Shown: one piece after another, positions 3,074 through 50,374 of the stretch
Layout of the letters: every line of letters begins with the position of its first letter
Numbering within the stretch: the first letter of the stretch is position 1
Source: Eledone cirrhosa
Lineage: Eukaryota
NCBI GenBank assembly: GCA_964016885.1
Contig: OZ024748.1
Coordinates: 52,452,001 to 52,516,000, forward strand
DNA: 64,000 nt
Direction of reading: 5' to 3'
Notes under the pieces: generated by a model
Told to the model about the DNA's origin: nothing
Database searches by the model: none
Seen by the model: only the letters and a program-made list of their open reading frames with translations
Position numbers and translations under genes: made by a program

Positions 3074-3139
3074 TTGTTTTATTAGCTAACAGTGTTTCAT
3101 CCATACCCCATGGCAGGAATCATCAGAGCCTATAAACAA
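3074..3139 (-). ncRNA. Type I hammerhead ribozyme motif in a Penelope-type 3' end
   Basis: Minus strand: ttataggct CTGATGA t tcctgcc atgg ggtatgga t GAAA cactg TT agctaataa. Stems I and II pair and stem III is minimal. AATAAA and a short tail follow into (TA)n. Confidence 0.75.
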
Positions 3140-3648
3140 GAGTATATCAATAGTTGCATGCTCCATCGAGCTGCATCACCAGAACAAGGTTAAAGGACCA
3201 GCAGGGGGGTGCCGAGGCTGGCGCTATATGGAAAAAGACAGAATACATGATGCACATATTGTCATAAAATGTCTTTAAAAATTACATCGAAGATTAAAAA
3301 TTAAAAATTAAAAATTACACCAAAACTTTATCAGTTAAATGGTGTAATAGATGATAAAGAGGTTGGGAGAGGGTAGCAAGGGATGAGTGAAGGTATTACT
3401 CAGCATGATCAGAAACAATAAAAAAATAATAAAAGAGTACAAAAATACAGGGATAACAAAAGAGATAAATATAAAAATACAAAACAATAAAGGAACAAAA
3501 AGCCCGAAAACCCCCAAAAATATAAAACAAAGCAAAGCATAGATACACCAAAGCATGAGCAGTGCAAAAACAGGGTGTACAGGCAGATTAACAGAGTTTG
3601 CAAGCATGAGTCTGAGAGAAGAATAGTTGGTTAGCAGTGGTGCAGCCT

Positions 3649-4020
3649 TACAATAGCTTTCACCGTATTTTTGACTAAAGAAATTTTAGTCTGATAATGG
3701 GGTTTAGAACCCTCAGATAAATGGAAAAAGATGAGTATTGAAGTACATGGGAGTTGAACCCACATCTTTGGTTATCCAGACCACTGTGCCACCATTACAC
3801 CATCACATCATCTGTTGGTGTAATGGTAGCACAGTGGTCTGGATAACCAAAGATGTGGGTTCAACTCCCATGTACTTCAATACTCATCTTTTTCCATTTA
3901 TCTGAGGGTTCTAAACCCCATTATCAGACTAAAATTTCTTTAGTCAAAAATATGGTGAAAGCTATTGTATTTTCTAATTTCAAACCTGCTCATCGTTTCA
4001 AAACATACTTACTTGCCATA
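3649..4020. mobile_element. tRNA-headed SINE-like element arranged as a fold-back palindrome with a 3' tail
   Basis: Arms 3649-3802 and 3816-3969 are reverse complements with 2 mismatches. 3810-3739 (minus) folds as a 72-nt cloverleaf (A box tggtgtaatgg, B box ggttcaactcc). A ~50-nt unpaired tail follows the right arm. Confidence 0.8.
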
Positions 4021-4023
4021 TAT

Positions 4024-4353
4024 CTCAGACCGGGTGATGTGTTGTTTCCTTGAGCAAGACACTTTATTTCACATTGCTCCAGTTTACTCAGCTATAGAAA
4101 TGAGATGATAGGGACTGGGGTCTCTATCATTCCACTGCAAAGTGGTCGTGGAGGTGCCACGGCAAAAAAAACACCCAGTCCACACTATAAAGGTGGATGT
4201 GTAGGTGCCATGGAAAAAAAGCACCCAGCACTTACTGTAAATGAGGTTGGTGTTAGGAAGGGCATCCAGCTGTAGAAATCAAGCCAGAATCAGTTCCGGT
4301 CCCACCCTTGCAAGCAGGGAAAAGCGGACGTAAAATGATGATGAGGATGATGA
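4024..4353 (+). mobile_element. CORE-type tRNA SINE (family S1), 5' truncated
   Basis: CORE-like ccttgagcaagacactttatttcacattgctccagtttactcagct, and an RTE-like tail ggtgttaggaagggcatccagctgtagaaa...gcggacgtaaaatgatgatg. Confidence 0.85.
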
Positions 4354-5488
4354 TATACTGTATATCATTAAAAAACGCATAGAACAAATATAGGACTCAG
4401 AAAAGATAAGCACATAAACAATTCCTGCTCATCAAATGCTTTTAAAAGACAGGACTGTTCCCACCAGTGCATCACCAGTATCCTAAGATAACTTTTCCGG
4501 ATAATGGACAAAAAAAACAAGAAGAAATATTTACATACCAATATGGGATATGAAAATTGCCTCAATCACTTGTAAAACATACGTAATGGGTTGATAATAG
4601 ATAAAAACATGTAAATGAATCTTCATAATATTTTCTTATTATAAACTCTGCCTATACTTTATATATTATACTGTGTTATTGAAATTTTCTATCCTTAGCC
4701 TTTACTTTTTACTAACAGTCATACATTGAGAGAGAGAGAGAGAAAGGGAGAGAGAGGGGGAGATAGGGAGGGGAGAGAGGGGGAGGAAGAGAGAGAGTGT
4801 GTGTGTGTGTGTTCATTCCACATAAATGACAAAGTTACATACATTGATCTTCTGTTGATTTCTGTACTAAATATTGTGAATATGTTAAGAAATGACTAGT
4901 CTTATGCAAATCAGGACCTCCCACTATAGTGGTTCCTAAACAGTTTAGTTATTCGTTTATCTATTTTCATATAAGCATATGGAAATGATTGTTTCTTACA
5001 TTTCACTTAACACTTTCATTATCGTATTCCTAATGAAATACATTCTATTTCAATTAATTAATGAAGAATTTAGAGGGATTTAATAAAATTATTGATTATT
5101 TAATTACTAAGATAATAACGTAACATATGGTTCTTATATACACTTGTAATTTAATTAGGACCCCTTTAAATTGAGTGGTTTTGTTTCATTGAAACAGAAT
5201 GTGGTTTTGGGTAGGTTGGTATCAAAAAGGGTTAAAGTTATTATTATAAGTAACTTAAAATGGAATAGAAACCAAGAAAGATGGTGGTATGGGGGCATGT
5301 CTGTGTGTTTATATATATACATACATATATATATACACACATACATATATATATATATATACATGCACACACAAACACACGCGCACACACACAAACACAC
5401 ACACATATATATACACATGCACTCACACACACGCACACACAAACACACACATATATATATTTTCACGCATACACACACACACATACAC

Positions 5489-5705
5489 ATGGATGATAAG
5501 CATTGGGTGAAGAAGTGTCAAGAACTCCCAGTGGTAAGACACTGTGGTAGAGGTAGTCCAAGGAAGACTTGGGCAGAGGTTGTCAAAGCTGATCTCACAT
5601 TACTGGATCTCACAGAGGAGATGATAAAGAACCAAGATAATTAGAGATGATGTGCTGGAAAGAACCCATCCAACCCATGGAAAAGCAGACGTAAAACCAT
5701 GATGA
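5489..5705 (+). mobile_element. RTE-clade LINE 3' fragment
   Basis: Translation MDDKHWVKKCQELPVVRHCGRGSPRKTWAEVVKADL (GRPRKTW-like motif), followed by the tail ccatggaaaagcagacgtaaaaccatgatg. Confidence 0.8.
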
Positions 5706-6108
5706 ACATCATATACACATATACACATATACATACGCATACGCACACCCACACACATTCACATATACATGCATGTGCACAAACAGACATATACACATGA
5801 GTGTGTATGTGTGGAGTGAGCGCTATCACAAGAGTGCCTCAGGTGGAGACCTTTATAATTGATAAGGTCATAGACTATGATGAAAGTACTTTGACAAACC
5901 AATTAATTGATGAATTAATTAAGTAATTATCTAATTAATTGATAATAAAAACGATTAGGAAATGCACACAGTGCCTGTGTTTTATGAGCAGAATGTTACC
6001 CACTTCCTGGGGTACAATAATATATCTTCAAAGACAATTTTGTATAAAGAATCTTGCAAAACAAATATGAAAATGGAATGTGTGTGTGAGTATGCATGTA
6101 TGTGTATG

Positions 6109-6158
<50 letters not shown>

Positions 6159-6160
<2 letters not shown>

Positions 6161-48281: not shown

Positions 48282-48312
<31 letters not shown>

Positions 48313-48532
48313 ATATCAAGACACTATTGCCAAAACTTCAAAGTCACTGCCACCTTTTTTTTAGAAAATGAAACAAACTCAGTTCAAATGAACTGGGAGC
48401 TCATTCAGTTAACATTTTTTCTATGGTTTGCTCTATGGTTCTTATATATTTGATATATATTTATCCTTATCGAGCCCTCTTTCGATTTTAGTCTTCAAAT
48501 TTATTATTATTACTATATATATATATATATAT

Positions 48533-49105
48533 CAGAGAGCTTATACCACTATTAGCCGCTAAAGGGTTCTCCCTAAAAATGAAAGGCAGGTTGTATGATG
48601 CCTGCATACGAACAGCAATGTTGCATGGCAGTGAGACCTGGGCATTGTGTGCAGAGGATATACGCAGACTAGAGAGAAATGAAGCTTGCATGCTCCGTTG
48701 GATGTGTAATAGTAATATACGTGAACGGCAAAGCATAAACGAACTAAGGAAAAAATTAGAAATAAGAGGGATCAGATGTTGTTTACTCGAGAGAAGGCTA
48801 CGTTGGTATGGTCACGTGATGCGCATGAAAGACGATAGCTGTATAACAAAGTGCAGGGCAATAAAGATAGACGGTAGCCACGGAATAGGCAGACCCAGAA
48901 AAACCTGGGACGAGCTGATAAATTCCGACCTCACACACTTACACCTCACCAAGACAATGTCACTGGACCGAGATCTTTGGCGGTACTCAGTAATAGAGAA
49001 GACCCGCCTTACCTAAATACATAGTAAAACCTACTACAGTCAGTTGGCATCTCTAACAAAATACACCCCCGTGGAAAATAGATGTTAAATGGTGATGATG
49101 ATGAT
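48533..49105 (+). mobile_element. RTE-clade LINE, 5'-truncated, with intact ORF2 C-terminus (stop at 49016)
   Basis: KGRLYDACIRTAMLHGSETW...RLERNEACMLRWMC...RRLRWYGHVMRM...GRPRKTW, then a 3' UTR ending gatgatgat. Confidence 0.92.
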
Positions 49106-49318
49106 TCATATATATGTGAGTCCTGATTTCGATTGGGGGTAACCATAGTTAGTAAGGTACTCAATACATTAGTAGAGTGCAAACATCAAGTTTAATATAG
49201 AAATGGCTTTCACAGGACTAGAAGTGTTTTATTAAAAAAAGCTTTCCTAATGATTTCTTCCATGAGCTGAGGCGTTTATACACACACACGTCTGTGTGTG
49301 TGTGTGTGTCTATAAATA

Positions 49319-49378
<60 letters not shown>

Positions 49379-49392
49379 TATGTATACGTACA

Positions 49393-49430
<38 letters not shown>

Positions 49431-49470
49431 TATGTATACGTACATGTGCATATATATATATATATATATA

Positions 49471-50374
49471 TAAGTATATATACGTACATAGATATATGTA
49501 TACAGGCGTACAGTAGTATGTATATATATATACATACATGCACACATATATATATGTACGTATGGATTTACCGAACATTTATTATAATGCTCGGTGTGTT
49601 TGTAAACAAACATCCCGAATTAAGCCGTACAGTGTCTAGCAACCATCGTTGCTCGTTTGTTCAACACTGACAAAGGTAACTAGTACACCGTTCCTTTGTC
49701 AGTATTGAACAAATGAGCAACGATGGTTGCTAGACTGTACGGCTTAATTTGGGATGTTTGTTTACAAACACACCGAGCATTATAATAAATGTTCGGTGAA
49801 TCCATACGTACATATATATATGTGTGCATGTATATATATATACATACTACTATACGTCTGTATACATATATGTATGTACGTATACATACTTATATTTAAG
49901 TAACAGCCGTACTAAGAGTGAGAAATGAAATTTCATTTCATTTTTTCCGTTTATCGTTTTCGGTATGCCCGGCCGATTAACTCACTCGATATGCAAATAA
50001 GGCTACTCAGCCATTAATATGCATAAGGAAAGTATATACTTTCAGACGTTCAATCATCTGGCAGGAAGGTATATGTTGCTGATGATAGCTAATAAGCTTG
50101 AAACTAGTACATCGTTCCTTTGTCAGTATTGAACAAATGAGCAACGATGGTTGCTGGACACTACGGCTTAATACGGGATGTTTGTTTACAAACACACCGA
50201 GCATTATAATAAATGTTCGGTGAATCCATACGTACATATCTATATATGTGTGCATGTATGTATATATATATACATACTACTATACGTCTGTATACATATA
50301 TGTATGTACGTATACATACTTATATTTAAGTACTAAGAATGAGAAATGAAATTTTGTTTAATTTTTTCCGTTTA
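49471..50374 (+). mobile_element. Non-coding retrozyme-like/Penelope-type element: inverted arm plus ~1.6 tandem ~424-bp units
   Basis: Inverted arm 49471-49676; direct copies start at ~49678 and ~50102. Hammerhead at 50061-50124: atatgttg CTGATGA t agct aata agct t GAAA ctag TA catcgttcc. Flanked by (TA)n. Confidence 0.85.

Follow-up and report, generated by a model that had tools for sequence, protein, structure and literature searches.

Hammerhead-ribozyme motifs from seven unrelated repeat families near (TA)n in a 64-kb window of the Eledone cirrhosa genome

The window, a 64-kb stretch of Eledone cirrhosa DNA analysed at its full length, contains nine motifs with the shape of a hammerhead ribozyme, distributed over seven repeat families that are unrelated to one another (Table 1). 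An earlier note on this DNA had listed eight hammerheads, one with a mirror, in about seven families with unrelated helices. Structural scanning of the window revealed a hammerhead core at all nine of these sites, and masked self-BLAST detected no similarity between the seven families. Three remnants that the note had placed at 27947, 30489, and 30671 form a single eighth family (F), which has an extra copy at 49121-49260. The 5′ ends of the copies lie at variable distances above the core, from ~10 nt (6998-) to ~770 nt (26416-), and no evident ORF was found in the 520-770 nt upstream of families A and C. Self-BLAST detected no tandem copies of families A-E and H in the window, and inverted copies lie next to the insertion in families B (twice), F, and G. 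Several palindromes without a hammerhead also occur in the window.

Table 1. Hammerhead-bearing repeats and Penelope-like element (PLE) coding sequence in the window
Positions	Strand	Feature	Hammerhead C3	Predicted cut
3039-3649	-	Family A copy: T-rich non-coding 3′ region, hammerhead (U.U at helix II base), short tail, then TA	3126-	after U3088
6893-7008	-	Family E copy; starts ~10 nt above core, directly after (TA)n	6998-	after A6961
12477-13267	-	Broken N-terminal half of PLE reverse transcriptase (RT), Nematis-like motifs; tblastn E 4e-54		
13351-13832		Family B head-to-head mirror, two hammerheads	13455-, 13642+	
22530-22812	+	Family H copy, decayed hammerhead, 42 nt to (TA)n	22729+	
26208-27190	-	Family C copy, ~980 nt, T-rich, between microsatellites; long branched helix II	26416-	after U26338
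27901-28045		Family F remnant, small mirror, broken core		
30452-30752		Two family F remnant mirrors flanking (TA)n, cores ~30489+ and 30698-		
43633-43920		Second family B mirror, one complete hammerhead, long tail on left arm	43821+	
43941-44250	-	Family D copy, 310 nt between TA arrays; 8-bp helix II	44022-	after C43984
49121-49260	-	Further family F remnant, absent from the earlier note's list		
49503-50372	+	Family G: inverted arm, full unit, and partial unit, then TA	50079+	after A50109
58750-59830	+	Candidate decayed PLE thumb-to-endonuclease stretch, end cut by another repeat; by eye, weak profile scores		

The hammerhead motifs are real and exceed the chance level. With a strict descriptor, six matches scored at least 9, compared with none in 25 local dinucleotide shuffles. 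A relaxed descriptor, defined once the sites and published variants had been seen, gave nine matches at a score of at least 9, coinciding exactly with the sites listed earlier (in 60 shuffles, 0.43 on average and at most 3), and eight at a score of at least 11 (0.08 and a maximum of 1 in 60 shuffles). Since shuffles yield 0.7 matches already at a score of 8, four weaker candidates with scores of 6.5-7.5 (47616+, 23333-, 33425-, and 23067-) were left out of the count of nine; 47616+, which contains a perfect 6-nt palindrome, may be a real decayed copy. The supposition that the motifs are unannotated held for Rfam, as no hammerhead family reached its gathering score in the whole window. Four small scans spanning five of the nine motifs gave one sub-threshold match, to HH9 (50061-50132; 19.1 bits, E 0.0099, gathering score 52). 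A metagenome scan with the family A motif gave no matches.

The core has the type I order (CUGANGA...GAAA...UH), which is exact in seven motifs and changed at one position in two: 6998- has C in place of A9 and 44022- has C in place of U4. Helices I and II can both form in eight motifs, the exception being 22729+, where helix I is absent beside the core. An intact core with both helices is present in only six of the nine, and minimum-energy folds of the monomers mostly lack the active shape. Stem III, which had been called very short and near-palindromic, is 6-10 nt long and 75-100% palindromic in the nine motifs; it forms no hairpin when alone, and its self-pairing energies range from -2.8 to -7.8 kcal/mol. 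A U.U is found at the base of helix II in five of the nine. Pairing is maintained across the seven families despite their unrelated helix sequences. Inside families, we saw no compensatory changes in the family B copies or the family A reads: the former differ in helix I by a single substitution of G.U for G-C, with no pair altered on both sides, and among the 40 of 116 rows listed for the latter the sole change is in loop 2, at position 3107.

All nine motifs have (TA)4 within 151 nt downstream (background, 25.7% of positions within 170 nt). This agrees with the proposal that the elements end at TA repeats, except that at 50079+ the closest (TA)4 is internal to the element, which ends at 50372, and at 6998- another repeat stands between the 3′ end and (TA)4. 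AATAAA occurs within 45 nt of seven motifs (background, 5.9%), where it sits 3′ of the predicted cut site, and it overlaps the 3′ strand of helix I in two families. The poly(A)-signal-like motif attributed to each hammerhead is thus present at seven of them, and it is not followed by a poly(A) tail. A GAGYRCT-like word, chosen post hoc, occurs in the tails of four of the eight families (background, 49 of 470 stretches) and is also found in published Hydra-clade PLE tails.

The arms of the family B mirror at 13.4 kb differ at 1 of 197 nt, and the right arm has ~90 nt more tail. At both family B loci there are two 3′ ends ~90 nt apart, one per arm; the 5′ ends differ between the two loci. The optional tail of ~90 nt compares with 30-40 for published PLE tails. 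The whole of the hammerhead in the 13.4-kb mirror is predicted to base-pair with the antisense arm.

We examined public reads for one of the seven families (A, 3126-), for which summed depth is not copy number. Contig depth was 38,640-55,692 over the hammerhead and tail, compared with 6.5-25.3 in the flank (~1,000-fold), and dropped ~tenfold 5′-ward, to 1,960-7,567 at 3346-3649, a fall that can partly reflect divergence of the window copy. At the family A 3′ end, one RAD run contained 2,529 reads with an (AT)n continuation and 1,099 + 403 reads with a shared extra tail. Opposite-strand (inverted) joints were also present in reads. We rejected the tRNA-like stretch at 3738-3810 as the head of family A; this stretch belongs to another family, which has far greater depth and ends independently at 3652-3655. 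Published hallmarks of PLEs are 5′ truncation, inverted copies, and one-sided tails (PMC8557442), and the families here show variable 5′ truncation, inverted copies, and an optional one-sided tail. The idea of PLE-type mobility with (TA)n as the target is upheld by family A read depth, ends, and joints, by the (TA)4 counts, and by the family B ends.

Three PLE coding fossils had been reported in the window. The one near 12490 is clear: its motifs are Nematis-like by comparison with a published alignment, and a microsatellite lies between it and the nearest hammerhead element. The one near 58950 is weak. Its chain score was 6.0 bits compared with 5.3 for the best control (65 stretches), its Atlas result was under the useful range, a homologue search found no homologue of the stretch, and no hammerhead is attached. 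The third, at 22530, resembles the end of a PLE protein by eye only and was not significant by profile. A PLE C-terminus profile gave no significant match upstream of 11 hammerhead or remnant sites (the PLE protein profiles used were Poseidon-like and Nematis-like), and 14 Hydra peptide motifs gave three isolated short matches in the window, none near a hammerhead. We found no coding sequence in the window for a Hydra-type RT (DKT and RWK motifs, CxCX5C linker, no CCHH). Pfam returned nothing significant for three window ORFs, and a metagenome scan with PLE protein gave no matches. At no site in the window is a hammerhead joined to a recognizable PLE RT and GIY-YIG ORF, as expected for short truncated copies.

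The motifs resemble hammerheads of Hydra-clade PLEs in their type I core, 3-4 bp palindromic stem III, cleavage after U or A, frequent U.U, short distance to the element end, and (TA)n preference. Of the published Hydra-clade rows, 14 of 26 have U.U at the helix II base, 10 of 26 cut after U, and 26 of 27 prefer (TA)n (PMC8557442, File S2); this preference is not Hydra-specific, as Naiad also prefers (TA)n. Penelope-13_HM, a member of the clade, has an inverted copy with a second hammerhead, as seen here. The clade also includes the Octopus bimaculoides family Hydra-1_Obim (PMC8557442, File S2), but by eye its listed helix sequences are in none of the nine motifs, and families B and C have a longer or branched helix II, unlike Hydra-clade hammerheads. 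Hammerhead shape is the sole basis for this putative clade assignment.

Minimal metazoan PLE hammerheads occur in many families per genome, mostly as single dispersed motifs, and include opposite-strand pairs 100-700 bp apart; the study that described these hammerheads interpreted them as truncated PLEs (PMC4209133; Cervera and De la Pena, 2014). Our motifs are likewise multi-family and dispersed, with opposite-strand pairs and palindromic 15.2-16.2 and loop 3. In the published consensus, G10.1-C11.1 follows one extra base, whereas here the helix II base is usually unpaired on both sides. The local density is 9 per 64 kb, compared with ~9,000 per Xenopus tropicalis genome (PMC4209133); a giant squid paper reports 235 Hammerhead_1 matches. 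Multi-family dispersed hammerheads, opposite-strand pairs, hammerhead PLEs at (TA)n, and non-autonomous derivatives have all been published, contrary to the earlier note's portrayal of a hidden, new system. The motifs here are further members of the published element type, not a new kind.

Family G consists of an inverted arm (49503-49676), a full unit (49678-50101), and a partial second unit (50102-50372), that is, 1.65 copies plus the inverted arm, with all three 2.6-4.1% apart. The unit is 424 nt long, 35% GC, and ORF-less (longest frame 69 codons, circular reading included). The first unit begins within the hammerhead, at stem III. This short, ORF-less, head-to-tail unit with a type I hammerhead resembles animal non-LTR retrozymes, which are proposed to be PLE-derived and PLE-moved (PMC7229834; preprint 10.64898/2026.07.22.740005). 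Unlike those, it has a mirror arm and a TA target, and the other six families are non-tandem here. Two consecutive units with complete hammerheads are absent from the locus; since it has only one complete hammerhead, family G falls outside the preprint's two-unit rule. At least this family probably represents a genuine non-autonomous, retrozyme-like unit that is mobilized by PLE machinery. "Non-autonomous," applied in the note to all the elements, has structural support at this one locus (49.5-50.4 kb); the others fit short 5′-truncated ends of longer elements equally well or better.

The motifs are probably the 3′ ends of several PLE families, lying in short repeats that end at TA and are mostly 5′-truncated and decaying. 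We infer the mechanism throughout from the anatomy of the copies and the literature. A PLE protein would nick (TA)n and start reverse transcription near the RNA 3′ end, where two alternative start sites could give rise to the optional tail. Reverse transcription would usually stop early, so that the hammerhead, 40-150 nt from the end, would be retained most frequently. The head-to-head mirrors would result from priming on both DNA strands. A PLE protein has been reported to cut and extend both strands, to use two internal start sites, and to act on unprocessed RNA (PMC11167929). Because most copies span the predicted cut site, the template RNA was likely uncleaved. Two tandem hammerheads of the parent element would be able to pair through their palindromic stem III and cleave as a dimer; we predict that the copies in the window, which are lone or mirrored and lack a cis partner, are mostly silent.

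We consider it unlikely that most of the seven families are instead dedicated, fixed-length, non-autonomous solo retrozymes that borrow PLE proteins and cycle via self-cleaved, possibly circular RNAs. Such elements would account for the family G unit, which has no frame over 69 codons, whose divergence between copies fits a single event on a multimeric or circular template, and whose hammerhead is the sole one to match an Rfam hammerhead, even if below threshold. They would also fit our failure to find an ORF upstream of any site, and monomers of 51-972 bp have been reported for retrozymes that derive from PLE pseudo-LTRs. However, six of the seven families have no tandem copy in the window, the 5′ ends vary from ~10 nt to ~770 nt above the core, and family A depth falls 5′-ward. 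Moreover, the G tandem could have arisen from two insertions close in age, with the later one landing at the end of the earlier.

It is very improbable that the window, which is AT-rich and dense in repeats, holds chance look-alikes of hammerheads or pieces of palindromic DNA transposons (MITEs). In favour of this reading, no motif attains an Rfam gathering score, a core or helix defect is present in three of nine, palindromes lacking a hammerhead also occur, and the relaxed descriptor was tuned post hoc. Against it, the strict scan separates the window from its shuffles, seven unrelated helix sequences maintain the same pairing, and the mirrors, unlike terminal inverted repeats, are uneven at their ends and vary at their centres. 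We likewise give little credence to retention of some copies by the host as active ribozymes or as 3′-end signals in introns or transcripts. The enrichment of AATAAA 3′ of the cut site would suit such a role and the high density offers many chances for exaptation, but decay of the copies looks random and includes core changes, the hammerhead of the 13.4-kb mirror would be sequestered by its antisense arm, and published PLE hammerheads cut poorly in vitro, and one of nine tested retrozyme dimers cut.

We regard it as possible, if doubtful, that the genome contains tens to hundreds of thousands of Rfam-missed hammerheads in at least eight families, several of them ORF-less retrozymes whose insertions bear every mark of a PLE (TA target, mirror, one-sided tail, and more-than-unit length). 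If true, this would be one of the most ribozyme-dense animal genomes and would give direct genomic evidence for the mobilization of retrozymes by PLE proteins, as proposed in the literature, with circular or multimeric RNA as the source. A genome with many high-copy families would be cheap material for covariation, for comparing 5′ ends with the cut site, and for dimer assays, and the 424-nt family G unit is a ready test case. Annotation based on Rfam undercounts such motifs, as zero of nine pass here; among the best 150 of its 405 matches in the whole window, Rfam mainly reported microRNA families on microsatellites.

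The hammerhead elements in the window behave like the 3′ ends of Penelope-like elements (PLEs), with the testable hallmarks of PLE insertion present. A strict type I descriptor (score cut-off ≥9) returned six motifs in these 64,000 microsatellite-rich bases (34% GC), whose repeats resemble those of octopus DNA, compared with none in 25 local dinucleotide shuffles. When the descriptor was relaxed, after reading published variants, to let helix II be flanked on either side by an unpaired base, there were 13 matches at score ≥6. Nine of these scored ≥9, versus a mean of 0.43 in 60 shuffles (maximum 3), and they are exactly the eight sites and one mirror that the earlier note had picked out. 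The four weaker matches were indistinguishable from chance and were excluded. Two of these, hammerhead-like motifs alike in outline and lying away from (TA)n, are listed below as weak motifs; they scored under the chance line. At the Rfam gathering score, none of the nine motifs in the window was recovered; in four small Rfam scans covering five motifs, the sole hammerhead match was 50079+ to family HH9 (19.1 of 52 bits). Were the window typical, the local density would be ~140 motifs per Mb, but the window may be atypical.

The core is exact in seven motifs; since two have core changes and a third lacks helix I, six of the nine are complete. Stem III cannot form a hairpin alone, and intermolecular self-pairing is predicted. 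As had been proposed, the seven families are mutually unrelated, with no similarity among them in masked self-BLAST, which joined the three remnants and a further copy, at 49.1-49.3 kb, into a group of four. Also as proposed, TA repeats flank the motifs, with (TA)4 at ≤151 nt in all nine. The poly(A)-like signal ascribed to every motif was less regular: AATAAA lies within 45 nt of seven and is absent from that distance in two.

Hammerhead families and other features of the window (site names give the C3 position of the core and the strand)
Feature	Position (strand)	Triplet before predicted cut	Detail
Family A	3126-	GUU
Family B	13455-/13642+, 43821+	AUA
Family C	26416-	GUU
Family D	44022-	GUC	C replacing U4
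Family E	6998-	GUA	C replacing A9
Family F	27901-28045, 30452-30752, 49121-49260		remnants; core broken at 27901-28045
Family G	50079+	GUA	inverted arm, 424-nt unit, 270 nt of second unit; ends at TA
Family H	22729+	AUA or AUC	no helix I
5′ ends and mirror centres at ribozyme	6998-7008, 27930-27947, 30480-30490, 30698-30706, 43796-43821, 49676-49686
Weak motifs	47616-47650 (+), 23333-23300 (-)
PLE coding fossil	12477-13267 (-)
Possible PLE coding fossil	58750-59830 (+)
Repeated stretch	58710-58850, 60010-60150
tRNA-derived element	3650-3970
Palindromes	15452-15584, 28643-28925
174-codon frame	48492-49016 (+)

In the available part of PMC8557442, PLE insertions show truncation, inverted copies, and one-sided tails, and 26 of 27 Hydra-clade rows, Hydra-1_Obim among them, prefer (TA)n. 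The hammerheads tabulated there have the same shape as ours; by our count, 14 of 26 rows have U.U and 10 of 26 cut after U. Both family B loci in the window are head-to-head mirrors in which one arm ends short and the other is ~90 nt longer. At 13.4 kb, the arms differ at 1 of 197 bases, and in the mirror transcript the whole hammerhead is predicted to pair with the antisense arm. The three arms of family G differ by 2.6-4.1%, and its 424-nt unit has no frame longer than 69 codons. Family G works like a retrozyme, a small non-autonomous hammerhead retroelement traced to PLE pseudo-LTRs (available parts of PMC7229834 and preprint 10.64898/2026.07.22.740005), but it falls short of the two-hammerhead rule at the 49.5-50.4 kb locus. 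Families A, C, and D are 40-43% T on the hammerhead strand, with no evident ORF in the window.

A GAGYRCT-like word, picked post hoc, occurs 30-70 nt below the predicted cut site in the tails of families B, C, E, and F; published Hydra tails contain it too, and a protein might recognise it. Separately, 5′ ends and mirror centres concentrate at the ribozyme: for families B, E, and F they lie no more than ~25 nt above the core, and for family G no more than ~8 nt from the predicted cut site. One guess is that reverse transcriptase stalls at the structure.

We compared four public sequencing runs with 2700-3830, sampling one family, A; three of them gave alignments. Summed contig depth, which does not equal copy number, was 6.5-25.3 in the flank, 38,640-55,692 over the tail and hammerhead (3042-3117), 16,102-20,826 over 3118-3193, and 1,960-7,567 over 3346-3649. 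Family A is plainly highly repeated, thinning 5′-ward. As depth showed no sharp step at the predicted cut site, most copies likely derive from uncleaved RNA. In a RAD run, reads begin at a single site within the element and then span its 3′ end; among the 18 of 710 loose-end rows listed, counting reads rather than loci, at least 2,529 run on as (AT)n, while at least 1,099 and at least 403 enter a common extension missing from the window copy. Opposite-strand joints connect 3247 with 3504 and 3277 with 3354. Since 3107 (loop 2) was the sole changed position within the hammerhead among the 40 of 116 rows listed, the majority form of the family probably has U.U and the triplet GUU.

Of three proposed PLE coding fossils, the first held: it matches proteins containing both RVT_1 and GIY-YIG (tblastn, best E 4e-54), with motifs like the Nematis rows of a published alignment. 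The candidate at 22530 was not significant, and the third, which looks by eye like a PLE end, was weak (E 0.04; 6.0 bits versus a 5.3-bit control). Because a microsatellite separates the first from the family B mirror and it begins ~200 residues into its longest relative, fossil and mirror do not form a single element in their present state. No hammerhead in the window was tied to an ORF, so any assignment to a named PLE clade is tentative; from hammerhead shape, Hydra would be our best guess. The stretch at the start of the third candidate occurs twice, each copy following a piece of the SINE that is common in the window.

According to the available part of PMC4209133, metazoan genomes each carry thousands of minimal hammerheads in many families, mostly single, with some opposite-strand pairs 100-700 bp apart; they are probably truncated PLEs, and activity is low, dimers included. 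Priming by a PLE protein uses two strands and two start sites and does not require cleavage (PMC11167929, available part). The original observation largely stands, but calling it a hidden system overstates its novelty. The families may already be in Repbase or in published work on dimer cleavage; literature on hammerhead with octopus and Penelope with cephalopod yielded no hammerhead census of an octopus genome. The remaining interest lies in the local motif density and the family G 424-nt unit.

Other repeats were also noted. The tRNA-derived element (~160-180 nt, a head-to-head mirror) contains a tRNA-Ser(gga) called by ARAGORN at 3738-3810-. Reads cover it to a depth of 104,000-436,000; opposite-strand joints are numerous and fall at varying points, and some of its ends lie at (TA)n. 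It resembles a tRNA-derived SINE mobilised PLE-fashion without a hammerhead; none of the paper titles listed described such a case. The 174-codon frame, which had no Pfam match, resembles the end of an RTE-like LINE reverse transcriptase. Two palindromes, both nearly perfect, lack a hammerhead; the first lies immediately after (AT)33. They may be MITEs or mirrors of additional PLE-type ends.
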